From Acidimicrobiia bacterium (GTDB lineage: Bacteria > Actinomycetota > Acidimicrobiia > Spongiisociales > UBA5794): a stretch of DNA of 64,000 nucleotides. Positions 15,819 to 27,611 of this stretch are shown here, in pieces. Where the stretch lies: contig JALSQW010000008.1 of assembly GCA_026985095.1 (NCBI GenBank), positions 50,470 through 114,469 of the forward strand. Reading direction: 5' to 3'. The notes beneath the pieces are model-generated. The model did no database searches. It saw nothing but the letters and a program-made list of their open reading frames with translations, and was not told where the DNA came from. Both the position numbers and the translations under genes were made by a program. Position 1 is the stretch's first letter, and every line of letters starts with the position of its first letter.

Positions 15819-17726
15819 TCAGACACCCTGGTAGATCGCGCGAGCGAGTTCCGCCTCGTCCTCGACCGGAACGTCGGCGAAGCGCACCGCGAACACCCCG
15901 CCCTCCGGATCGTGGCCGGGGACCGGCTCACAGCGGAACACGAGTCGCTCCCCGAGGACCTCGACCTCGAGCTTGGATCCCGCCTGCGGCACCCATCCCG
16001 ACAGGGACCGGAGCCGGGCGCCGCCCAAGGACAGGTCCACGATCTCCACCGGTTCGTCGCCCAGGCTCCCCCGCAGCCGCGTGGGCATGCGGACGCTCGC
16101 CCGCCGCTCACCGGCATATCGAGGCGCGGTGATGCGGACGATGCCGGTCGCGACGAACGCTGCGTTGACGGCAAGGAACACGGCGGCGCCGACCATCGCC
16201 CCGGGTTCGTCGTAGGTCATGGGCGTGAACCCGCCGAGGGTCGCGACGCCCCACCCGAGGGCCAGCACCGCGGCCGCGAACACCCCGGTGAGGACCAACG
16301 GCGGACGGGGGCGACCCCCGACCCTGCGTCCCTTCGGTGTCACCTCGAAGCGCGTCCGCACCGACGGATCGAACAGCATCAGGGTCGCCGACAGGACCGC
16401 CGGCATGCGCAGGAACTCGAACAGGGTCGACAGCAGCGGCGGGTAGTAGCCGCGGGCCAGCCGCCGGAGCGCCACGAACTGCAAGGCGAGCACACCGACG
16501 AACACCGGGCCGTAGACCGCCAGCGGCGCCACGATCGGGACACCGCCGGTCGCCAGGACCACGATCGGCAGGACCAGGTAGCCGAGGATCTTCCACGCAT
16601 CGAACCACGCGAACAGCGTCGACGCGTACGCCAGGCGTTGGGCCACCGTCAGGCCGCGCACCACCAGCGGGTTCTCGAGGCGCAGGAGCTGCATCGCTCC
16701 GGACGCCCAACGATGCCGCTGCAGCAGGTAGGCATCGGCGTCCGACGGGGCCAGCCCGTGGGCGAGGACCTCGTTGTGGGCGACCGTTCTCCATCCCCTG
16801 GCGTGGAGACGCACCGTGGTGTGGATGTCCTCGGTGATCGTCCCGGTGGCGACGCCGCCGACGTCACGCAGCGCCGCCACCCGCACGACCGCGCCGGTCC
16901 CGCACCAGAACGCCGCGTTCCATCGGTTCTTCGCCGGCAAGATCACCCGATAGAACACCGACTCCTCGGTGTAGTACCGACCCGTGCGCAACGGCTCGTG
17001 CTCGAAGGATGTCACGTTGTAGAAATCCTGTGGGGTCTGCACGAGCGCCAACCGGGGATCATCGAAGTAGCCGAGCGTGTGCCGCAGGAAGTCCGGACGG
17101 ACCACGTGGTCGGCGTCGAGAACCCCGATCACGTCGGCGTCGATGTGAGCCAACGCGTGGTTGAGGTTCCCCGCCTTGGCGTCGGCGTTGCTCGGGCGGG
17201 TCAGGTAGCGGGCCCCGAGGCGGCGAGCCAGCGCCGCCACCTCCGGACGGCGCCCGTCGTCGAGCACCCAGGTCTCGTGGGCCGGTTCGATCGCCACCGC
17301 CGCCGCGATCGTCGGAAGCAGCACCTCGGTCGGCTCGTCGTAGGTGGTGATCAGCATCGCCACCTGCAGGTCGGTGTCGTCGACGACCCGCGCCGGTGCC
17401 ACCGCGTCGAGGTCCCACAGTCCGAAGGTGAACAGCGCCAGCCCGATGCCGTTGTGGATCTCGAGCACGACGAGGGGGATCGACACCCACCACGCGGCCG
17501 GGTTCAACGTGAAGGCGGCCCGCCACGTCAGGTAGGCGAGGGTGAACCACACTGCACCGACCGCCAGCCCACGGATCGCCAGCTTCCGTCGCGCCGTCTC
17601 AGGCGGCGGCATCGCTCCCCCCTCGAACGTCGGAAGACCCGAGAACGGATCGATCGTGAGCGCCACCCCGGGGTCGTCGGACGCGGCGCGACCGAGGTCG
17701 GAGAGGTCTTCGGATGGAACCGGCAT
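15819..17726 (-). CDS. cellulose-synthase-like GT2 glycosyltransferase with C-terminal PilZ domain
   Basis: DDG, KAGNLN, DADH, QTPQ, FWCGT, TED, QRHRW; PilZ ERRASVR and DLSLGG. Confidence 0.88.
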   Translation of the reverse strand: MPVPSEDLSDLGRAASDDPGVALTIDPFSGLPTFEGGAMPPPETARRKLAIRGLAVGAVWFTLAYLTWRAAFTLNPAAWWVSIPLVVLEIHNGIGLALFTFGLWDLDAVAPARVVDDTDLQVAMLITTYDEPTEVLLPTIAAAVAIEPAHETWVLDDGRRPEVAALARRLGARYLTRPSNADAKAGNLNHALAHIDADVIGVLDADHVVRPDFLRHTLGYFDDPRLALVQTPQDFYNVTSFEHEPLRTGRYYTEESVFYRVILPAKNRWNAAFWCGTGAVVRVAALRDVGGVATGTITEDIHTTVRLHARGWRTVAHNEVLAHGLAPSDADAYLLQRHRWASGAMQLLRLENPLVVRGLTVAQRLAYASTLFAWFDAWKILGYLVLPIVVLATGGVPIVAPLAVYGPVFVGVLALQFVALRRLARGYYPPLLSTLFEFLRMPAVLSATLMLFDPSVRTRFEVTPKGRRVGGRPRPPLVLTGVFAAAVLALGWGVATLGGFTPMTYDEPGAMVGAAVFLAVNAAFVATGIVRITAPRYAGERRASVRMPTRLRGSLGDEPVEIVDLSLGGARLRSLSGWVPQAGSKLEVEVLGERLVFRCEPVPGHDPEGGVFAVRFADVPVEDEAELARAIYQGV

Positions 17727-17834: not shown

Positions 17835-19085
17835 TCAGGACCGGATCACCGGATCGGGCCCGACCGCCACCACCCGCTCGATGGCCCGGTACACCCGTTC
17901 CTGCATCCCGACCTCGTCCGGTTCGAGCAGGTTCGCCATCACCTTCAACGCCCATTCCATCAGGGGGCGGGACCGCAAGCCGACACGGGTGAGCGCCCGC
18001 ATCAACGTCGGGTTGCCGATGGCGATCACGAACGCTCGCGCCACCCGGTGATAGGCCCCGTACTCGTCCTCGATCGCCCGAGCGTACGCCCGCAGCCTGC
18101 CGGAGCCCGGATCGGCGAGCTCCTCCACCACGTAGGAGGCGGCGAGCCGTCCGGTCTCGTAGGCGTAGTCGATCCCCTCGCCGTTGAACGGGTTGACGGC
18201 GCCGGCCGCGTCGCCGACCAACATCCAGTTCTCCCCCGCCTTCGGGCCCACCGAGAACGCCATCGGGAGCTTGCCGCCGGTGGGAGCGACCAGCTCCGAG
18301 TCCGGGCCGATGGCCCAATGGTCGGGAAGCTGGGCCAGATAGGCGTCCTGGACCTTGGAGGTGTTGACTTCCTTCCAGCCCTTGAACGAGGAGATGACCC
18401 CCACCCCGACGTTCACCGTCCCGTCGCCCATCGGGAACACCCATCCGTACCCGGGCATCGAACGACCTTCGCGGTCGCGGATGTCGAGTTGGCTCTCCAG
18501 GAACCCGTCACGACTGTTGGGGCTGGCGTAGTACCCCCGGACGGCGAGCCCATAGGGGAAGTCGCGGCGCCGATGCGTCCCCAGGGCGCGACCGAACCGG
18601 GACAGCGAGCCGTCGGCGACCACGACCACCCGGGGGGTGATCCGCTCGACGGCGCCGTCGACGACGAGATCGACCCCGACGAGGCGACCATCGGCGACGA
18701 CGGCCCGCGCCTCGACCCCATCATCGACGGTCGCTCCTTGCGCGGCGGCCAACGCGGCGACCTGCATGTCCAGGTCGGCCCGACGCAGCGTCGCACCCCA
18801 CGTGGGATAGATCGTGTGCCGAGGCCACGGGAGCTCGAGGGTCAAGTCACCGGCGTACGCGCGGAGGCCGGAGATCCTGTGCACGTCGTCGGCGTCGAGG
18901 TCGAAGCCCATGTCGATGAGCTGCTTGACGGCCCGCGGCGTCAACCCGTCGCCGCAGGTCTTGTCGCGGGGATACCGCTTCTTCTCGACGAGACGGACAT
19001 CGGCGCCGGCCTTGGCGAGCCAGAACGCGGACGCGGCACCGCCGGGGCCGCCGCCGACCACCAGGACGTCGGGTGAGGAGCTCAT
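17835..19085 (-). CDS. geranylgeranyl reductase family / MenJ-like menaquinone reductase
   Basis: VGGGPGG FAD motif, PRDKTCGDGLTPRAV, GYGWVFP, GDAAG, NGEGI. Confidence 0.85.
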   Translation of the reverse strand: MSSSPDVLVVGGGPGGAASAFWLAKAGADVRLVEKKRYPRDKTCGDGLTPRAVKQLIDMGFDLDADDVHRISGLRAYAGDLTLELPWPRHTIYPTWGATLRRADLDMQVAALAAAQGATVDDGVEARAVVADGRLVGVDLVVDGAVERITPRVVVVADGSLSRFGRALGTHRRRDFPYGLAVRGYYASPNSRDGFLESQLDIRDREGRSMPGYGWVFPMGDGTVNVGVGVISSFKGWKEVNTSKVQDAYLAQLPDHWAIGPDSELVAPTGGKLPMAFSVGPKAGENWMLVGDAAGAVNPFNGEGIDYAYETGRLAASYVVEELADPGSGRLRAYARAIEDEYGAYHRVARAFVIAIGNPTLMRALTRVGLRSRPLMEWALKVMANLLEPDEVGMQERVYRAIERVVAVGPDPVIRS

Positions 19086-19119
19086 GGGCGTCGAGGCTAC
19101 CGGCGGGAACGACCCGCCG

Positions 19120-20166
19120 TCAGCCTGCGGCTTCCACCAAACCGCAGTCGGTCTCCGCGGTCGCCAGGTCCTCGCCCCCGAACGCGACGCGCTCGTACAG
19201 CACCACCTGGGCGATCTGCTGGTCGGTGAGCTGACCACCGAACGGCGGCATGCCCCCCGCCACCGGCTTGCTCGTCGCACCGTAGGTCGGGTCGGGCCAC
19301 CCGGCGGAACCCAGCGTCACCCACTCGACGTGAGACGAACACGAACCCTCCGGGAAGGTCTGGAGCACCGCGCCGCCGGCCATGCCAGGGCCGACCCCGC
19401 CCTCGCCGGCATTGCCGTGGCAGATCGCGCACGACTCGGCGAACAGCATCTCCCCGGCGGTGAAGTTGTCGACCGTGCCCTGACCGTACGGGTTCCCGTC
19501 GCAACCGACGGCCTCGCCCGTCACCGGGTCGATGGCGAGCTGCCCAGCGCTGCCGCACGCCGGCCCGTTGGGGACCGCGGCGATGTAGACGACGGCGAAG
19601 ACCGGGATGATCACGAACAACGCGGCGAGGAGCGCCGGGTAGCGGCTCGCCTTCTTCGGTTCGGGCGCCGGAGCCTCGGCCTCCGCGGCGGGCGCCTCGG
19701 CCGGTTCGATGACCTCGACCGGGGCCTCCGTCGGCGCGACCGGGCCGGGGGCAGCCGCCTCGGCCGGGGCAGGAGCGGGGCCGGCCGGGGCGACCCCTGC
19801 GGCGGGCAGTTCGATGCCCGCCCATTCGGCCAGCACCGCTTCGACGGCGATGCCTTCCTTCTTGGCGCGGGCCCCGGCCGACCGCTCGACCAGCGAGGCA
19901 GGCATCCCCTTGGCCTCGGCGGCCTTGGCGATCAGCTCGTCCTTCGAGATCGCGGCGGGGGCCGGAGCGGGAGGCGCCTCCGCCGGAGCCGGAGCCGGAG
20001 CGGCGGGTGGGGCTGCCTGCGCCGTCGGAACCTCCTCGCCGGCCCACTGCGCCAGGACCTGCTCGACGGGCACCCCGAGCGCCTGGGCCCTGGCCTGGGC
20101 GGAGCGGTCGACCATGTCGGCCGGCACACCGGTCGATGCTGCGATACGTTGGATGAGCTCTTCCAT
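19120..20166 (-). CDS. membrane-anchored monohaem cytochrome c with two N-terminal helical repeats
   Basis: CAICH haem motif, GGMPPFG Met ligand, single TM, Ala/Pro linkers. Confidence 0.88.
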   Translation of the reverse strand: MEELIQRIAASTGVPADMVDRSAQARAQALGVPVEQVLAQWAGEEVPTAQAAPPAAPAPAPAEAPPAPAPAAISKDELIAKAAEAKGMPASLVERSAGARAKKEGIAVEAVLAEWAGIELPAAGVAPAGPAPAPAEAAAPGPVAPTEAPVEVIEPAEAPAAEAEAPAPEPKKASRYPALLAALFVIIPVFAVVYIAAVPNGPACGSAGQLAIDPVTGEAVGCDGNPYGQGTVDNFTAGEMLFAESCAICHGNAGEGGVGPGMAGGAVLQTFPEGSCSSHVEWVTLGSAGWPDPTYGATSKPVAGGMPPFGGQLTDQQIAQVVLYERVAFGGEDLATAETDCGLVEAAG

Positions 20167-20172
20167 GGTCCC

Positions 20173-22116
20173 CTACTTCAGGCTGGTCAGGTAGACGGCG
20201 AGGGCATCGAGATCCGCGTCGGACAGGTACGAGTAGGCCGGCATGAACGACCACGGCCGCTCCACCCGCGGATCGGCCAGATGCGCGAACAGGAACTCGT
20301 AGCTGTTGGATCCCTCCCGCGAACCGAGATGCATCAGGTCGGGTCCAAGGCGCCGGTACCCGCGCTGGATCGGATCCTCGTGCACGTAGTCACCAGCGAC
20401 GCTCACCGGTCCCAAGCCCACGTCGGGAACCACCGCCCGCACCTCCTGGGTGTGGCAGACGGCACACCCCTCCCGAAGGTAGACCGCACGACCACGCGCC
20501 TCGGCGCTCCCCGCCGGGTAGATCCGGCTCTCGTCGGCCAGGATCGTCGACGAGGCGATCGCCGGATCGAGCGACGGGAGGAACCACATCATCGTGCCGA
20601 CGATCAGGAACAGCGACACCGCACCCCACCGCAGCTGGCCCCACCGCACCGTCGCCACGCCCCCCTCGATCTCGAGATCGATCGGCTCGGCGTCGACCGC
20701 CGGCAGCTCGGGTCCGCTCCGGGCGACCGGACTGAACGCACCGACCACGAAGAGCCCCTGTGCCAGGGCGTAGACCGCCATGCCGATCGCCGCGACCCCG
20801 AGGTACGGCTTCAGCCGGGCCGCGGTGTTGAAGAACCCCGCCCCGGTGTCGACGAACAGCCCCGAGTTGGCGCCGCTCGCCCAGGTGAACCCGGCCAGCG
20901 CCGCTCCCAGCCACACCGACACCAGGACCAGTCCGAGGCCGACCATCGTGTAGCGGTAGTGCCACGTCGCGACCTGCTCACGGGCCGGAGACGCGCCCGT
21001 TCCCAGCACGTGATAGGCGAAGGCGAACAACCACATCGACACCGCCCCCAGGAACATCAGGGCGTCGTTGGCGGCCACCCATCCGGTGAACTGGACGATC
21101 GCCGACGAGGTTCGGGTCGTCGCCACGATGTCGGCCAGCGGCACGATCGCCAGCATGGCGCCGCCCGCCACCAGGAACCGCAGGGTCACCCGGTCGGGGA
21201 TCTGGAGCCAGCGACCACGCATCTCGAGCACGAAGTCGGTGACGATCACCGCCACCGGGACGACCAGCGCGATCGACGCCGCCACGCCGAGGGTCTCGAG
21301 CCAGTCGGGACCCGCGCCGTAGATCAGATCCCGCGGCCCGGTCGCCGCCCACACGAACGCCAGCGACCAGAACCCCAGCACGCTGACAGCGCTGGGCTGG
21401 ATCGGATCCGCGCCCGCCAGGCGAGGGATGAGGTAGTACACGACACCGACGCCGGCCGCCGCGAACCACAGGCCGGTGAGGCCGGCGCGGTAGAACGAAC
21501 TCTGGATCTCCCCGGCGTACCCACCGACCCCCGGCAGGGTCCCAACGACCGAGATCAGGACCAGCCACCACGTGGCCGCCACCAGGTACCACTCGGCCGG
21601 GCCCAGCCGATCCCGGCGATGAGCCACGGTGGCGGTCGCCACCCACGCCACCAACACGAAGCCGGCCAGGAGCAAGACGTCGGACCACAGCGGCATCTCC
21701 TGGTACGCCCTGCCCTCGGACGCGCCGAGGTAGATCGAGGCCATCCCCGTCGCCACTCCCACGGTGACCAGGATCAGGGCCACCAGCGCCGCTCCCTCGT
21801 GGCGCAACGGCCCGGAGGTCAGCCGAGGCAAGATGTAATAGATGGCCCCGATCAGCCCGATCGTCAACCATCCGTACAGCAACGCCGCGGTGGCGATCGG
21901 CACCAGGCGCCCGTAGGAGAACAGCACGATCCCCGAGTAGGCGCCGGGGACCGCCAGCTCGATCGAGGCGGCGGCCAGCAGCAAGGTCGCCACCACCAGG
22001 AACACCGACGCGATCACGAGATGGGCTCGCACGAGACCCGACGGACCGTGATCGGTCACCGGCGACGGCGGTACCGCCGGCTCCTGGACGTCGTTGTCGG
22101 CCAGATCGGTCGTCAC
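20173..22116 (-). CDS. cbb3 oxidase subunit I-like (no His ligands) fused to subunit II-like cytochrome c
   Basis: CcoN-like landmarks (YGRLVP, YYLIP, GFW, PDW, LRFLV, FTGW); CcoO-like EGCAVCHTQEVR, RLGPDL, SFMPAY. Confidence 0.85.
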   Translation of the reverse strand: MTTDLADNDVQEPAVPPSPVTDHGPSGLVRAHLVIASVFLVVATLLLAAASIELAVPGAYSGIVLFSYGRLVPIATAALLYGWLTIGLIGAIYYILPRLTSGPLRHEGAALVALILVTVGVATGMASIYLGASEGRAYQEMPLWSDVLLLAGFVLVAWVATATVAHRRDRLGPAEWYLVAATWWLVLISVVGTLPGVGGYAGEIQSSFYRAGLTGLWFAAAGVGVVYYLIPRLAGADPIQPSAVSVLGFWSLAFVWAATGPRDLIYGAGPDWLETLGVAASIALVVPVAVIVTDFVLEMRGRWLQIPDRVTLRFLVAGGAMLAIVPLADIVATTRTSSAIVQFTGWVAANDALMFLGAVSMWLFAFAYHVLGTGASPAREQVATWHYRYTMVGLGLVLVSVWLGAALAGFTWASGANSGLFVDTGAGFFNTAARLKPYLGVAAIGMAVYALAQGLFVVGAFSPVARSGPELPAVDAEPIDLEIEGGVATVRWGQLRWGAVSLFLIVGTMMWFLPSLDPAIASSTILADESRIYPAGSAEARGRAVYLREGCAVCHTQEVRAVVPDVGLGPVSVAGDYVHEDPIQRGYRRLGPDLMHLGSREGSNSYEFLFAHLADPRVERPWSFMPAYSYLSDADLDALAVYLTSLK

Positions 22117-22269
22117 GATCCGCGCATCCTCCTCGGGTCTGTGTTCACGGCCGGCCGGAAGCCTAGCCGCGACGCCGTCGCCGGGATTGTCCTTCGCCGG
22201 GCCGAAGGCGTCAAAGCGAGGCCGGCGGCGGTCTCACCGGAACGGATTCGTTCGCGGCCGCCGGATGCG

Positions 22270-22275
22270 TACAAT
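22270..22275 (+). promoter_or_regulatory. putative -10 element (TACAAT) of the cytochrome bc operon
   Basis: TACAAT ~30 nt upstream of AGGAGG RBS in the divergent intergenic region. Confidence 0.45.
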
Positions 22276-22306
22276 GCGCCCGCCAAGCCAGACCCGTCCC
22301 AGGAGG

Positions 22307-22897
22307 ATGACCCTGAACGACCGAGCCAAACTCGCCGGAGGCCTCACCGCGATCGCCGTCGGGATCGTCGTGGCGCTCGGTGCTGCCTTCGTCGTGCACG
22401 CTGCCGAAGCACCCCGGTTCAACGAGTTCGGACAGGAGATGTTCCCGGCCATCCCCCGAGCGTGGCAGCTCGTCACCCTCGCCCAGATCGTCTCTTTGGG
22501 AGGGGTGTTCCTGGCCATGGGAGGATTGGCCCTCGCCTACATCTACGACCGGCCGCTCACCTGGGCCCGGGCCGCGGTCGGCGCCGCCTTGTTCGTCGCC
22601 ACCACGCTGATCCTGTTCGGGATCGTCCCCAACCAGTACCTCACCCTCGCCCAGGCGACCTGGGAGTGGACCCCGACGAAGACCTTCGTGACGATCCCCC
22701 GATGGCTGGTCCTCAACAACGACCTGTCGATCAGCTACGCCGCGTTGAAGGACATGATCTCGGGTGCGTACGCCGTCGTCGCCCTCGTCGCCGTCGGCCT
22801 GGCCATGGTCAAGTGGCAGGACCGCCAGAAGAAGGCGGCGGCGCCCAAGCCGACGCCGATCTCCGAATACGGCCGACCGCTGAAGGTGGAGGGCTGA
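22307..22897 (+). CDS. hypothetical membrane protein (about 4 TM), first gene of bc operon
   Basis: Hydrophobic helices, C-terminal SEYGRPL; stop overlaps ferredoxin start. Confidence 0.75.
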   Translation: MTLNDRAKLAGGLTAIAVGIVVALGAAFVVHAAEAPRFNEFGQEMFPAIPRAWQLVTLAQIVSLGGVFLAMGGLALAYIYDRPLTWARAAVGAALFVATTLILFGIVPNQYLTLAQATWEWTPTKTFVTIPRWLVLNNDLSISYAALKDMISGAYAVVALVAVGLAMVKWQDRQKKAAAPKPTPISEYGRPLKVEG

Positions 22898-23337
22898 TGG
22901 CCAAGAACGACGTCTGGTTCGAGACCCCGCCGCTGCGGGACGACTATCAGCTCGCCGCGGTCGACGGCGACTACCTGACCAAGGCGGTCAAGCCCAAGCA
23001 GTTCCTGCACATCAACCAAGCCGAATGCATCCTCTGCGAAGGCTGCGTCGACATCTGCCCGTGGAAATGCATCCACTACCTGTCGGTCGACGTCGTCGCC
23101 GAGGCGGTCAACGTCGACGACCCGAAGGCCAACGCCGAGAACCGCGGCGTGTTCATCGTCGACGAGGACGAATGCACCCGCTGCGCCCTGTGCATCGATC
23201 GCTGCCCGACCGGCGTCATCACCCTCGGCAAGTTCGCCGGCTCCCTCGCCGAACAGGCCGAATCGATGGCGCCGTGGGAGTTCGACACGGGCGAACGCGA
23301 CTTCAAGAACGGCTACCTGTATGGCGTGCGGTGGTAG
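22897..23337 (+). CDS. 2x[4Fe-4S] ferredoxin
   Basis: CILCEGCVDICP and CTRCALCIDRCP. Confidence 0.92.
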   Translation: MAKNDVWFETPPLRDDYQLAAVDGDYLTKAVKPKQFLHINQAECILCEGCVDICPWKCIHYLSVDVVAEAVNVDDPKANAENRGVFIVDEDECTRCALCIDRCPTGVITLGKFAGSLAEQAESMAPWEFDTGERDFKNGYLYGVRW

Positions 23338-23418
23338 CCCGAGAGGCGTGACCCGGAATTGGAACCCGGCCTCCCGCGAGGCAAACTGACAAGACCCAGG
23401 ACACGGAGGAACCGACAG

Positions 23419-24183
23419 GTGGCGAACGGCAACAAGGGCGGCGGCATGAGCGGCCTGCTCGACCATGTCCGCGAGAGCCAGGTGTGGAACTCGATCTTCC
23501 GCCCCGGCTCACCGTTCCGGGCCGGCTACTCGGACTCGCCGAGGAACCGGTCGTACGTGATCATGAACAACGTGCTCTATCACCTCCACCCGGTGAAGGT
23601 GAAACGTCACGGCGTCCGGCTGTCGTACACGTTGTGCCTCGGCGGGCTCAGCTTCTTCCTGTTCATCGTGCTGACGATCACCGGCATCTTCCTGATGTTC
23701 TACTACCGGCCGACGTCGCCCCAGGCGTATCTGGACCTCCAGGCGTTGACGACCGACGTGGCCTTCGGCAACCTCGTGCGCAACATGCACCGCTGGGGCG
23801 CCCACCTGATGGTGCTATCGGTGTTCCTCCACATGGCCCGGGTCTTCTATCACGGGGCCTACAAGCCGCCGCGAGAGTTCAACTGGGTCGTCGGTGTCCT
23901 CCTGCTGCTGCTGACGCTGCTCCTGTCGTTCACCGGCTACCTGCTCCCCTGGGACCAGCTGGCCCTGTGGGCCGTGACCGTCGGCTCGACCATGGCCAGC
24001 TACACGCCCGTGTTCGGGAGCCAAGTGAGCTTCGTCCTCATCGGTGGCGTCCAGATCACCCCCGACACGTTGCTGCGCTGGTACGTGCTGCACGTGCTGT
24101 TCCTCCCGTTCATCATCACCATCTTCCTGGCGGTCCACTTCTGGCGGGTCCGCAAGGACGGCGGCATCTCCGGACCGCTCTAA
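23419..24183 (+). CDS. cytochrome b6-like subunit (N-terminal half of split cytochrome b)
   Basis: LCLGG, RNMHRWGAH, FLHMARVF, KPPREFNW, GYLLPWDQ, YVLHVLFLP, AVHF, GISGPL end; GGAGG RBS. Confidence 0.93.
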   Translation: MANGNKGGGMSGLLDHVRESQVWNSIFRPGSPFRAGYSDSPRNRSYVIMNNVLYHLHPVKVKRHGVRLSYTLCLGGLSFFLFIVLTITGIFLMFYYRPTSPQAYLDLQALTTDVAFGNLVRNMHRWGAHLMVLSVFLHMARVFYHGAYKPPREFNWVVGVLLLLLTLLLSFTGYLLPWDQLALWAVTVGSTMASYTPVFGSQVSFVLIGGVQITPDTLLRWYVLHVLFLPFIITIFLAVHFWRVRKDGGISGPL

Positions 24184-24194
24184 GGAGGCGACGA

Positions 24195-25043
24195 GTGGCA
24201 GAGATCCCAGAACACATCCTGCGGCGCTCCGCCGAGGCGCGCGCCAAGGCCGAGGGCCGGAGCGTCGAGGAGGTCCTCGCCGAGCTCAAGGGCGAGGCAC
24301 CGCCACCGCCGACCTCCGCCGCGAGCGGCGCCGCGCCCGCCGGCCGCGACCTGGCCGCCGAAGCCGAATCCTCCGGCGTGCCCCAACACCTCCTGGAACG
24401 GGCCATGCGAGCCCGGGCCAAGGCCGAAGGCAAGCCCGTTCCGGCCGCCGGTGGCGGTGCAGCCACCGCCACCGCCACCGCCACCGCTCCGAAGCCCGCC
24501 GCCGCACCGGCGCCGGCGGTTCCCCCCGGCGTCCGTACCCAGCGACTCCTCACCGTCGTCAAGGCCGGTGCCATCCAGCAGGTCAAACGGGAGCCCCACG
24601 ACAAGGTGAACGTGTGGCCGCATCTGCTGGCCATCGAGTTCGTGGCATTGCTCGCCTGCCTCGCGTTCTTGATCGTCCTGTCGATCTTCCTCGAGGCACC
24701 GCTCCTCGAGTTCGCCAACTTCAACGAACAGCCGAACCCGTCCAAGGCCCCGTGGTACTTCCTCGGCCTGCAGGAGATGCTCGCCTACTTCGACCCGCAG
24801 GTCGCCGGCGTCATCATCCCCGGCTTCGGACTCGCCGCCCTGGCGATGATCCCCTACGTCGACAAGAACCCGTCGGTGCGACCCTCGGACCGCAAGCTGG
24901 CGATCATGATCTTCACGTTCTTCATCATGGCCGCGGCGGTGCTGACGATCTTCGGGTCGTTCTTCCGCGGACCAGGGTTCAACTTCACATATCCTTGGAG
25001 GGACGGAATCTTCTTCGACGACCTGAAAGCGATCCTCGAATGA
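24195..25043 (+). CDS. cytochrome b6 subunit IV-like (PetD-like) with N-terminal repeat extension
   Basis: WPHLL, PNPSKAPWYF (PEWY equivalent), IPYVD; AAGGAGG RBS. Confidence 0.88.
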   Translation: MAEIPEHILRRSAEARAKAEGRSVEEVLAELKGEAPPPPTSAASGAAPAGRDLAAEAESSGVPQHLLERAMRARAKAEGKPVPAAGGGAATATATATAPKPAAAPAPAVPPGVRTQRLLTVVKAGAIQQVKREPHDKVNVWPHLLAIEFVALLACLAFLIVLSIFLEAPLLEFANFNEQPNPSKAPWYFLGLQEMLAYFDPQVAGVIIPGFGLAALAMIPYVDKNPSVRPSDRKLAIMIFTFFIMAAAVLTIFGSFFRGPGFNFTYPWRDGIFFDDLKAILE

Positions 25044-25918
25044 ACCCCACCACCATCTTCGCCGTCGCCCTCATCGCCACCGGCGTCCTCGCCCTCGCCG
25101 GGATCCTCGCCGTCGCCGTGCGACGCGGCAACGAGCCCGGCCCGATGACCGCCGCCGAGCTCGACCGCAAGGCCCTCGAACGCGACCGCAGCCGCCGCGT
25201 CGAGCCGACCGCAGAGGCGCCGAGCGCGGTGGCGACCCTGGAACGGACGGAAACCGAAACGGAGACCGAGGCCGGGCCGGCCGAGCCGCCGGTCGACCCG
25301 ATGCTGCAACGTGTCGAGGTCTCCGAGAACGACTACGGGGTCACCCGCCGCCAGTTCTTCAACCGAGCCCTGCTCGCGGTGTGGGGGCTCTTCCTCGCCC
25401 AGTTCGGCCTGTTCAGCCTCGCGTTCCTGTGGCCCAAGCTGAAGGGCGGCTTCGGCACCAAGGTCAACGCCGGCAAGCTCCTGGACATCAAGGAGCAGCT
25501 CTTCGACGGAGCCACGATCGTGCCGCTGCACAACAACCCGGCCCAGGCGTGGATCGTGCCCTTCGAGCTGAAGCTCCTCGAGGACGTCCCCGGCAACTCC
25601 TTCGAGAACCTTCCGTTCCTCATCGCCGGCGGCGAAGACGACGGCATCGGGATCATGGCCATGTGGCACCGCTGCGTCCACCTCGGCTGCCGGGTGCCCG
25701 AATGCGTACCGTCACAGGGCTTCGAATGCCCATGCCACGGATCGAAGTACAACATCCACGGCGAGTACGAAGCTGGACCGGCCCCCCGCAACCTCGACCG
25801 TTTCGCCGTCGAGGTCAACGACGCCGGCGAGCTGATCATCGACACCGGCAACGTCGTCCAGACGCCCCGAGCGAAGAACAAGACCGCCATGTACCCCCAG
25901 GGTCCGTTCTGCGTGTGA
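25040..25918 (+). CDS. Rieske [2Fe-2S] subunit
   Basis: CVHLGC, CPCHGSKY, GPAPRNL, internal Tat motif TRRQFF. Confidence 0.93.
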   Translation: MNPTTIFAVALIATGVLALAGILAVAVRRGNEPGPMTAAELDRKALERDRSRRVEPTAEAPSAVATLERTETETETEAGPAEPPVDPMLQRVEVSENDYGVTRRQFFNRALLAVWGLFLAQFGLFSLAFLWPKLKGGFGTKVNAGKLLDIKEQLFDGATIVPLHNNPAQAWIVPFELKLLEDVPGNSFENLPFLIAGGEDDGIGIMAMWHRCVHLGCRVPECVPSQGFECPCHGSKYNIHGEYEAGPAPRNLDRFAVEVNDAGELIIDTGNVVQTPRAKNKTAMYPQGPFCV

Positions 25919-25919
25919 G

Positions 25920-27611
25920 GTGATCGCCCTGCTGCAACCGTCCACGATCGTTCTGGCCGCCGTCGAGGAGGCCGCACCGGCTCGCCCCGAGGTCTTCGGC
26001 GTCGGTGCCCTGGCCCTGACCCTGGCCGTCGTCGCCGTTCTCGGCTGGATGACCTACCTGTACGTCAACTCCCGTCGTCGGCGCTCCGCCGAGCTCGAAG
26101 AGGCCCCCGACAACCTGTCGCCGTACCTGTCGGACGACGAACTCGAGAACGTCCGTTCCACCCGGGTGCTGCGAGGCGCGGTGTTCGCCGCCGCGTTCTT
26201 GGCCATCGTCATGACCGTCTACGCTGCCGCCGAACCGAGCCGCCAGGCCAAGGCCGCCGACACCATCTCCGAACAGGCCATCGAACGCGGCGCAGAGCTC
26301 TACCAGCGCTTCGGCTGCGTCGGCTGCCACGGGCCCGACGCCGGCGGAGGGGCGGCGCCGTTCACCGAGGCCCGCAGCAACGTCGACACGGGCTGGGTGG
26401 TGCCCTCCCTCAACGACGTCTTCCTCCGGTACAGCGACGAGGAGATCCGCTTCTGGATCACCTACGGTCGGCCGGGCACGCCGATGCCCGCCAACGGCCT
26501 CGAAGGGGGCGGCGCGATGACGTTCCAGGAGATCGACGAGGTCATGGCCTACCTGCGCTCCATCCAGATCAGCCAGGCCGACACGCTCGCCAAACGCGAC
26601 GGTACCGTCCAGTCGGCGCTGGCCCGCATGGCCAACGGCGACACCACCACCGCCCAGCTCATCGCCCTGCAGGACGCCAAGATCGCCGAGATCGCCGCCG
26701 CACCGGGGAAGGTCGACGCCGCCGGGACCCTCGACACGGAACTCGAGGCGCTCCTCGCCGGAGCCGGCACCTGCACCGTCGAATCGGCCCACGCCGTCGA
26801 GAAACCGTGCGACGACCCAGCCCCCGACACCGACCGCGATGGGTTGTCCGACGCCGCCGAACCGGCGATCACCGAGATCGCCGCCACCGCGCTCGAGCAC
26901 CTGACCGTCCTCAACGAGACCAAGACCACGGACCGACTCGAGCCGACCTTCGATCCGAATCCCGTCTACGACAAGCGGTTCGATCCGGAGAACGCGTTCA
27001 CCAACGTCACCCCCTCGGGTCGCGCCGTGCCGGACCTGGACGCCGCCATCGAGGTCCTCGAGAGCCTGCGCACCGACCTCCTCCTGCTTCGGGTCGCCGC
27101 CGAACGCCAGGACGCGTTCCTCGGTGACCTCCAGCTCGGTCTCGACTACCTCCGACAGGCCGCCGACGAGCGACCGTGGATCATCGACCCCACCGCCGCC
27201 GCCGAGGCGATGACCGACCAGCTCGCCGCCGACATCGCCGCCATGGAAGCCGTCGGCGCCGATCCCGAGGACATCCCCCCGCCACGGGTCATCTCCGTCG
27301 ACGAAGCCGAACGTGCCATCGGTCTGTTCAACGGCTACTGCGCTCGCTGTCACACCGGCGGCTGGTCGGCCGGGCCCACCTTCGAACAGGGCCCCGGCAG
27401 CGGAGCGTGGGGACCGTCGCTGAAGGAAGCCCGCTCGGTCGTTCAGTTCCCGAACTGGACCGACCAGGTCAAGTTCGTCATCAAGGGCACCGACCAGGCC
27501 GCCCACTACGGGGTCAACGGCATCGGTTCGGGTCGGATGCCCGGATTCGGGATGGTGCTGTCGGAGGAGGACATCGAGTTGATCGTCATGTTCGAGAGGT
27601 CGCTGCGATGA
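25920..27611 (+). CDS. membrane-bound dihaem cytochrome c
   Basis: CVGCH and CARCH, MP ligands (GTPMPA, GRMPGFG), two N-terminal TMs. Confidence 0.9.
   Translation: MIALLQPSTIVLAAVEEAAPARPEVFGVGALALTLAVVAVLGWMTYLYVNSRRRRSAELEEAPDNLSPYLSDDELENVRSTRVLRGAVFAAAFLAIVMTVYAAAEPSRQAKAADTISEQAIERGAELYQRFGCVGCHGPDAGGGAAPFTEARSNVDTGWVVPSLNDVFLRYSDEEIRFWITYGRPGTPMPANGLEGGGAMTFQEIDEVMAYLRSIQISQADTLAKRDGTVQSALARMANGDTTTAQLIALQDAKIAEIAAAPGKVDAAGTLDTELEALLAGAGTCTVESAHAVEKPCDDPAPDTDRDGLSDAAEPAITEIAATALEHLTVLNETKTTDRLEPTFDPNPVYDKRFDPENAFTNVTPSGRAVPDLDAAIEVLESLRTDLLLLRVAAERQDAFLGDLQLGLDYLRQAADERPWIIDPTAAAEAMTDQLAADIAAMEAVGADPEDIPPPRVISVDEAERAIGLFNGYCARCHTGGWSAGPTFEQGPGSGAWGPSLKEARSVVQFPNWTDQVKFVIKGTDQAAHYGVNGIGSGRMPGFGMVLSEEDIELIVMFERSLR

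Follow-up and report, generated by a model that had tools for sequence, protein, structure and literature searches.

A CcoN-CcoO-like fusion protein of Acidimicrobiia lacking the histidine ligands of haem-copper oxidases

A stretch of 64,000 nucleotides (nt) from the genome of an Acidimicrobiia bacterium (assembly GCA_026985095.1, contig JALSQW010000008.1, positions 50,470 to 114,469), referred to below as the window and having a G+C content of about 70%, contains a gene whose product resembles the CcoN and CcoO subunits of cbb3-type cytochrome c oxidases joined in one chain. In this protein, the His residues that should bind the haems and copper are replaced. Such ligands are regarded as the hallmark of haem-copper oxidoreductases as a superfamily, and the locus raises the question of whether a protein devoid of them still works as an enzyme or is kept for another reason. 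A preliminary description, made from the sequence of the window, had proposed a retained pseudo-enzyme working with a divergent bc-type complex.

Ligand loss in a retained fold

The gene is located on the minus strand at positions 20173..22116, begins with a GTG codon and encodes a protein of 647 amino acids (aa), P0001; its open reading frame (ORF) is intact, as had been described. Its identification as a His-less CcoN-CcoO fusion protein is based on Pfam, NCBIfam, phmmer, AlphaFold2 and Foldseek analyses. The protein consists of a CcoN-like domain of 12 helices (residues 27-460; positions 20737..22038, minus strand) and a CcoO-like part (20176..20643, minus strand) composed of a transmembrane (TM) helix, residues 492-515, and a haem c domain, residues 516-647.

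The phmmer search against all chains of solved structures aligned residues 19-466 of the fusion protein with CcoN chains. These chains were 6xkw_n (Rhodobacter capsulatus supercomplex), 9g83_t (alphaproteobacterial supercomplex) and 3mk7_A (Pseudomonas stutzeri cbb3), with E-values from 1e-21 to 2e-17. Opposite the His residues of the RPLHT, YGHN, GPHH and GHVH motifs of these chains, the fusion protein contains A75, A211, R262, D263, N350 and A352, and W256 stands opposite the Tyr of VYIWAGPHH, the cross-linked one of the family. With the metals assigned to the columns as is established for the family, A75 and A352 occupy the positions of the ligands of low-spin haem b, and N350, A211, R262 and D263 those of the haem b3 His and the three CuB His. 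The four pairs of canonical and altered motifs listed in the preliminary description (GRLRPLHTN/GRLVPIATA, WWYGHN/SFYRAG, VYIWAGPHH/VWAATGPRD and DWTIGHVH/GWVAANDA) were located at residues 69, 207, 255 and 345, and its claim that all six His of haem b, haem b3 and CuB and the cross-linked Tyr are replaced was confirmed by the columns of the phmmer and MAFFT alignments. The MAFFT alignment included the ccoN products of Rhizobium and Paraburkholderia, the norB product of Roseibium and His-bearing actinobacterial homologues, and all six of their His residues fell into the same columns. Since three independent alignments agree in placing the His of canonical sequences in these columns, the replacement of the ligands is not an alignment artefact.

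The replacement extends to the whole family. A word-indexed search of 5.8 billion proteins yielded 106 homologues, and in the resulting alignment of 107 sequences, query included, the six ligand columns contain no His in 99 sequences and one His in eight, all of which belong to one subclade with His at column 262. Thus, the two haem b columns are without His in the entire set (0/107), and the only His in the haem b3 and CuB columns is that of the eight sequences just mentioned. Tyr never occurs in the cross-link column (0/107), where Trp is found in 64 sequences. Different residues have taken the place of the ligands in different sequences (A/F/V; A/G/S; A/R/S; D/Q/E; V/T/F; Y/V/L), which argues against a new metal site. 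A shifted His, two residues past column 75, was detected in 20 of the 107 sequences and is absent from the protein of the window. As for other possible ligands, no invariant His, Met, Cys or Lys was found in the N-terminal domain among 76 fused members of the family, the commonest His residues there being H386 (57/76), H32 (54/76) and H369 (41/76); thus, no alternative His ligand is invariant.

The AlphaFold2 model of the fusion protein, built with 76 homologues, had a mean predicted local distance difference test (pLDDT) score of 89.7 and a predicted template modelling score of 0.93, and the blocks around the ligand positions had pLDDT values of 88-98. The model contains 12 helices and a thirteenth one preceding the cytochrome domain. 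According to the Foldseek search, the most similar structures are the cbb3 CcoN chains 9g83_t, 9g6b_A, 6xkw_n, 3mk7_A and 8smr_E, with target-normalised template modelling scores of 0.84-0.86, a root mean square deviation of 2.5-3.8 Å and an identity of 20-22%. They are followed by the NorB subunit of cytochrome c-dependent nitric oxide reductase (cNOR) (3o0r_B and 4xyd_A; scores 0.80-0.81) and then by subunits I of the B and A families. The 12-helix subunit I fold of CcoN is therefore retained in the prediction, and the earlier remark that the flanking structural motifs are kept holds for many such motifs as well as for the fold, judging from phmmer, AlphaFold2 and Foldseek.

Family scores place the protein at some distance from ordinary cbb3 subunits. 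The Pfam profile COX1 matched residues 29-446 with 103 bits (cut-off 34.8), and FixO (PF02433) matched residues 506-639 with 85.6 bits (cut-off 29.6; profile positions 21-148 of 219). In contrast, the curated NCBIfam cut-offs were not reached by the models PRK14485 for fused subunits I/II (199.9 bits; cut-off 1080), TIGR00780 for ccoN (123.8 bits; cut-off 583.15) and TIGR00781 for ccoO (76.8 bits; cut-off 200.65). For the CcoN part, only the superfamily-level COX1 profile exceeds its cut-off; for the CcoO part, the characteristic N-terminal TM helix, single CxxCH motif and distal Met are present. Scores above the Pfam cut-offs and far below those of NCBIfam indicate that the protein is a relative of fused CcoN-CcoO and not an ordinary member of that family.

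The haem c site of the CcoO-like domain is preserved, as the preliminary description had noted: the CAVCH motif occupies residues 551-555 (window positions 20452-20466), and the distal Met belongs to the MP of SFMPAY at residues 625-626. Among the 76 fused members, C551, C554 and H555 are invariant, and M625 is conserved in 75. Entropy-based conservation was 0.65 in the CcoO-like domain, 0.62 in the outer loops and 0.37 in the inner loops of the CcoN-like domain; the topology used for the loops was borrowed from cbb3 and agrees with the count of Lys and Arg residues (seven in the inner loops versus two in the outer ones). The near-invariant polar residues R70, E140, D146, D271, E274, T275 and R335 lie at or near the outer face, and no conserved ladder of charged or polar residues was found within the membrane part of the CcoN-like domain. 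In the column of E140, in the periplasmic loop 3-4, each of the 14 sequences aligned has a Glu, and this applies to the canonical ones as well; in cbb3, this Glu is the ligand of the Ca2+ between subunits N and O.

Purifying selection was estimated by comparison with the closest relative, a 94% identical protein that is spread over two short contigs of one assembly. The rates of nonsynonymous and synonymous substitutions (dN/dS) were 0.029/0.243 for residues 1-425 and 0.039/0.327 for residues 386-647, that is, a ratio of 0.12 in both cases. As the homologues are also devoid of the His ligands (99 of 107, with a single one in the other eight), decay of this copy, the outcome that would have undermined the preliminary description, is not borne out.

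Distribution and gene neighbourhood

A scan at the species level (one genome per species) revealed 160 related stretches, of which the best 80 were kept for analysis of the loci. Nearly all record titles of these 80 stretches refer to metagenome-assembled genomes of Acidimicrobiia, Acidimicrobiaceae or Actinomycetota; a few stand under other names, presumably due to binning. Of 301 genomes sampled evenly across the class, 68 contained a match to the pseudo-oxidase at E ≤ 1e-20, with no stop codons reported inside the listed matches except single TGA codons in two weak ones. Apart from the genome of the window, the protein occurs in 65 of 76 sampled genomes of the same order and in 2 of 224 genomes outside it. 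It should be noted that the tallies over 301 genomes given in this text for the class and for the phylum (pseudo-oxidase, ferredoxin, the module described below, and phylum) each take in between one and three genomes that bear an unpublished flag (G250, G275, G212 and G377); these contribute single counts only, and nothing else in the text depends on them. In some families of the order, the CcoN-like and CcoO-like domains are encoded by separate adjacent genes, and the four CcoN-like proteins extracted from such loci are all His-less. In three split CcoO-like ORFs of the largest family of the order (L086, L087 and L089), the CxxCH motif is kept and the MPxY motif of the distal Met could not be recognised by eye near the C-terminus, which suggests a different sixth haem ligand in these proteins.

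As for the phylum, no genome in the sample of 301 reached the ccoN (TIGR00780) cut-off. Homologues bearing all six His were found in three families with small genomes (L090-L094 and L106); they belong to the C family, score 246-306 bits, below the 583-bit ccoN cut-off, and are thus divergent yet probably active oxidases. One other family had no His in the blocks shown (six loci), and in yet another family the only sequence shown has retained a single His, that of column 352.

In a quick maximum-likelihood tree, 39 ligand-poor actinobacterial sequences formed one group separate from the canonical proteins (support of 85, not starred, in the Shimodaira-Hasegawa-like approximate likelihood ratio test). 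Three further His-less proteins were placed beside a canonical CcoN-like protein of Paraburkholderia (support 100) and form a second His-less lineage. With both groups on the tree, the label "His-less" requires at least two changes; the tree comes from a short search and has some long branches, and this number of losses is a lower-bound estimate rather than a firm count. The identifiers for the second lineage and for the top-ranked relatives with partial sets of His described next are proteins P0085, P0106 and P0107 and representatives P0117-P0259. A wider phmmer search over 1.84 billion cluster representatives found 2195 relatives at E ≤ 1e-3, including 108 at E ≤ 1e-30. Among the best 150 of them, 111 were at least 420 aa long; in the automatic alignment of these and the query (112 rows), in which distant rows may be misaligned, 69 had no ligand His, 20 had all six and 23 had from one to five. 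Partial patterns among the latter include HHQNHH and HHHHHM.

The surroundings of the fusion gene are conserved; the counts below refer to those of the 80 related loci that have enough flanking sequence. Immediately downstream, starting 6 nt past the stop codon of the fusion gene, the minus strand encodes a partner cytochrome c of 348 aa (19120..20166), and a cytochrome c gene was found in this position in all 63 loci with a flank of at least 1.2 kb. The protein contains two cytoplasmic modules of about 44 aa, Pro/Ala-rich linkers, a TM helix (residues 173-191) and a monohaem domain with CAICH at residue 246 that matches the CcoP-type profile PF13442 with 36 bits (cut-off 27). The earlier statement that no ccoP, ccoQ or ccoGHIS genes lie nearby therefore fails for ccoP-like genes. 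It stands for two others: FixS (ccoS) and FixH (ccoH), which are associated with cbb3 assembly, gave no match across the 100% complete genome of 2.93 Mb, the search not including ccoQ, ccoG and ccoI. A second FixO was not found in the genome either.

On the opposite side of the fusion gene, a divergent run of genes begins on the plus strand. The first of them encodes a 196-aa protein with four predicted TM helices (22307..22897), present upstream in 65 of 69 loci. No known family was found for it, and a search in the ESM Atlas gave unnamed actinobacterial clusters only; H31, W53, W86 and W121 are invariant among its 53 homologues. The predicted complex of this protein with the fusion protein had a score of 0.27 (mark 0.32). 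The next gene, whose ATG overlaps the stop codon of the previous one, encodes a 2x[4Fe-4S] ferredoxin-like protein of 146 aa (22897..23337; 58/66 loci). It was masked in the list of ORFs by a spurious ORF of 1507 codons (18814-23337). The ferredoxin-like protein has a median identity of 76% across 61 loci and was found in 256 of the 301 genomes of the class. Further on, the plus strand encodes a cytochrome b6-type subunit with an uncertain start codon (23359..24183; NF040969 ExtP, 301.5 bits with a cut-off of 290; PF00033; 56/58 loci), a PetD-like subunit IV (24192..25043; PF00032; 53/55 loci), a Rieske iron-sulfur protein (25016..25918; 50/52 loci) and a membrane-anchored dihaem cytochrome c with CVGCH at residue 133 and CARCH at residue 474 (25920..27611; 44/47 loci). 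The Rieske/b6 complex of Acidimicrobiia thus seems to have a cytoplasmic iron-sulfur subunit. ExtM of Geobacter is not a ferredoxin; according to the publication, it is a 12-haem cytochrome. A look-up of RNA sequencing runs covering positions 19120-24183 listed none.

The loci with split genes share the same neighbourhood. In two other actinobacterial families, a distance of 5-6 kb with cytochrome c biogenesis genes in it separates a ligand-poor CcoN/CcoO pair from the same type of ferredoxin/b6 cluster. In two loci, L102 (9346-11381) and L104 (9634-11483), the ligand-poor genes adjoin genes for CcmF or Cytochrom_C_asm proteins and a ResA-like thioredoxin, and L104 contains in addition a cupredoxin-like gene (16663-17448).

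The third gene of the minus-strand run (17835..19085) encodes an FAD-dependent, MenJ-like protein of the geranylgeranyl reductase family. It exceeds the cut-off of TIGR02032 (218 bits; cut-off 158.8) and remains under that of the MenJ model (294 bits; cut-off 700). A gene of this type lies at most 4.5 kb downstream in 38 of 46 loci, and whether it is part of the pseudo-oxidase system is uncertain. It is followed by a gene for a family-2 glycosyltransferase with similarity to cellulose synthase and a C-terminal PilZ domain (15819-17726, minus strand), which was found beside the cluster in only one related locus (L008).

The modules of about 44 aa mentioned above share a conserved RSAxARA sequence followed by VEEVLAxW and match no Pfam family. 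In the window they occur at the cytoplasmic N-termini of the partner cytochrome c (19807-20166, minus strand) and of subunit IV, which has two of them (24192-24500, plus strand). According to a profile of 219 copies, these two ORFs are the only carriers in the genome, the next match having an E-value of 0.0075. One to five copies were detected in 78 of the 80 loci, and where the genes are split, the N-terminus of the CcoO-like protein also bears the module. In the sample of the class, the module was found in 138 of the 301 genomes, all from the order of the window and one family with small genomes. The assumption that it is a tether strictly co-occurring with the pseudo-oxidase was rejected: it is present in all 65 genomes of the small-genome family, which have no pseudo-oxidase match, and in 3 of 3 genomes of another family without such a match, and it was not found in two outside families that have the pseudo-oxidase. 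Since its distribution departs from that of the pseudo-oxidase, the module characterises this part of the class and does not prove a tether.

The same genome contains four further COX1 genes with canonical His motifs, as well as matching COX2 genes with CuA or CxxCH motifs. One of the COX2 genes has a CxxCH motif, and one oxidase of the genome looks like a caa3 type. With four ordinary haem-copper oxidases, oxygen reduction does not depend on the fusion protein.

Possible role of the fusion protein

The preliminary description's reading of a retained pseudo-enzyme is in line with the family-wide loss of ligands, the dN/dS ratio, the presence in most genomes of the order, the invariant haem c site and the four intact oxidases. 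We rate the fusion protein as a pseudo-enzyme branch of the C-family haem-copper oxidases. The reading that we favour, at a probability of roughly 0.55, is that a non-catalytic CcoN relic is kept as a membrane platform for c-type haems and serves as an anchored electron carrier between the b6/Rieske complex and the aa3/caa3 oxidases. The gene would be a non-catalytic descendant of a gene for a fused cbb3-type CcoN-CcoO oxidase. We infer that haem b, haem b3, CuB and the His-Tyr cofactor are all missing from its CcoN domain and that the domain reduces neither O2 nor NO. Where the ligands of both haems and of CuB are gone together with the active-site Tyr, the chemistry by which the family is known to reduce O2 or NO should be unavailable. 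Selection maintains the helices together with the haem c site, and most of all the outer face. We therefore interpret the CcoN domain as a platform on which the CcoO-like domain may still depend for its place on the membrane, the outer face holding a putatively functional haem c domain. Together with the adjacent monohaem cytochrome c, the fusion protein would form a membrane-anchored module with two c-type haems that most probably shuttles electrons at the outer face between the complex of ferredoxin, b6, Rieske and dihaem cytochrome c and the aa3/caa3-type oxidases or other acceptors.

As for the divergent bc-type complex named as the partner in the preliminary description, conserved synteny (cytochrome b in 56 of 58 loci) suggests the link. 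The conservation of the cluster suggests that a b6-type Rieske/cytochrome b complex with a ferredoxin, found in Actinomycetota, has an accessory module that had not been described. An obligatory subunit of the complex was considered and rejected, since the ferredoxin is present in 256 of the 301 class genomes and the pseudo-oxidase in 68, and the complex therefore works without the pseudo-oxidase in most relatives. This disparity also weighs against the favoured role as an electron carrier, and so do several other points. The complex has its own dihaem cytochrome c and one of the oxidases is caa3-like, which makes the need for an additional relay not obvious. An anchor of 12 helices is costly for one haem c domain, and a relay alone does not explain it. 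A His at column 262 is retained in one subclade, and a shifted one, two residues past column 75, occurs in 20 of the 107 sequences. Finally, several of the ligands are replaced by small residues (Ala), and the former haem pockets may remain unfilled and could hold another hydrophobic cofactor.

The last two points bear on the possibility that the scaffold is still an enzyme, which binds haem or another metal through non-His or shifted His ligands and carries out a redox reaction fed by the haem c domain. The retained fold and structural motifs are compatible with it, as are the small residues at the ligand positions, which could leave the pockets open, the shifted His and the His at column 262, and the partial sets of one to five His among the top relatives, suggestive of stepwise change rather than collapse. 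Nevertheless, we consider it very unlikely: the N-terminal domain has no invariant His, Met, Cys or Lys, the replacing residues are variable, the protein of the window does not have the shifted His, and the cross-link Tyr is absent from all 107 sequences. Twelve well-conserved helices under purifying selection could alternatively mean that the CcoN-like domain is re-used as a proton or ion channel, a transporter or a lipid or quinone site, with the haem c domain as a redox sensor or gate, and the homologue of a menaquinone side-chain reductase in the gene run (38/46 loci) is in line with such re-use. The lack of a conserved polar ladder within the membrane and the position of the near-invariant polar residues at or near the outer face make this role distinctly improbable, and we know of no precedent for such re-use.

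The genes for Cytochrom_C_asm, CcmF_C and ResA-like thioredoxin proteins between the ligand-poor pair and the bc cluster in two other actinobacterial families may indicate that the protein is a factor outside the electron path, such as a platform handling haem, and helps to assemble or mature c-type cytochromes or the bc-type complex. The protein, however, has a strictly conserved haem c site of its own with the His/Met ligation typical of an electron carrier, and the identified neighbours at the Acidimicrobiia loci are structural respiratory genes; on balance, such a factor has a low probability. A decaying pseudogene or an artefact of assembly or alignment, for which the missing ligands speak and nothing further, was rejected as practically negligible in view of the full-length 94% identical homologue, the 160 related stretches, the dN/dS ratio of 0.12, the three alignments and the confident model (pLDDT 88-98 at the ligand positions).

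A more far-reaching version of the platform proposal, which we hold to be unlikely, is that the dead CcoN has been retained over a very long period as the structural core of a new actinobacterial respiratory supercomplex, in which it bridges the ferredoxin-b6/Rieske complex and the aa3-type oxidases, with the c-type haems as wiring and the 44-aa module aiding assembly. In this version, the ligands would have been lost at least twice in C-family oxidases, and ligand-less relatives would be a numerous group that has stayed hidden, accounting for 69 of the 112 top-ranked representatives with a length of at least 420 aa (query included).

Comparison with known systems

In the NCBI and JGI databases, homologues of the fusion protein are named "cbb3-type cytochrome c oxidase subunit I" or "subunit I/II". 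It is very unlikely that the fusion protein is the oxidase so named. A genome study of Acidimicrobiales credits these bacteria with cbb3-type oxidases from automatic annotation (PMC8357290). If such assignments rest on the His-less family, the high-affinity, low-oxygen respiration inferred from them would be wrong. No published description of a His-less CcoN or of a ligand-less homologue of haem-copper oxidases was found in the full-text literature, supplements lying outside the search; the datasets of PMC11214002 may hold such sequences. A clade that has lost all six ligands and is still constrained means that the scaffold is useful apart from catalysis.

The closest known systems are the cbb3 oxidases, including those with fused CcoNO, which provide the best matches in sequence and structure and in which a subunit I of 12 helices likewise precedes a monohaem CcoO domain with one helix. 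The fusion protein also keeps the Glu of outer loop 3-4 and the PDW motif, and the gene of a membrane-anchored cytochrome c lies next to it. It differs from cbb3 in the replacement of all six His and of the cross-link Tyr and in scores far below the curated cut-offs. Besides, the ccoNOQP operon encodes a dihaem CcoP, whereas the corresponding third gene product here is a monohaem cytochrome c.

In the supercomplexes of cbb3 and bc1, known from the titles of the Protein Data Bank entries 6xkw, 8smr and 9g83, cytochrome cy and CcoP (6xkw and 8smr) place haem c domains at the outer face of the membrane beside a bc-type complex, as we propose for the fusion protein. Their anchors are a single helix or part of an active oxidase, whereas here a whole inactivated subunit I would serve as the anchor in a putative partnership.

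Nitric oxide reductases (NORs) with the subunits NorB and NorC belong to the same branch of the superfamily, NorB chains being the second-best structural matches. They keep their haems and have three His and a Glu for FeB, whereas the fusion protein has no His in the columns concerned, in all six of which NorB of Roseibium has one. Fusion of subunits I and II is also a feature of the quinol-dependent enzyme, qNOR, according to passages of the superfamily survey by Murali et al. (PNAS 2024; PMC11214002). In this respect the fusion protein is a mirror image of qNOR, whose catalytic site survives and whose haem c motif is gone.

The same passages, which make no mention of members without ligands, report that the active-site His are fully conserved in all families except gNOR, in which one is replaced, and call this loss a first (PMC11214002). 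Like gNOR and other recently recognised families of haem-copper oxidoreductases described there, the fusion protein is a member of the superfamily with an altered active site that was revealed by genome mining; unlike gNOR, with its single replaced His, it has all six replaced.

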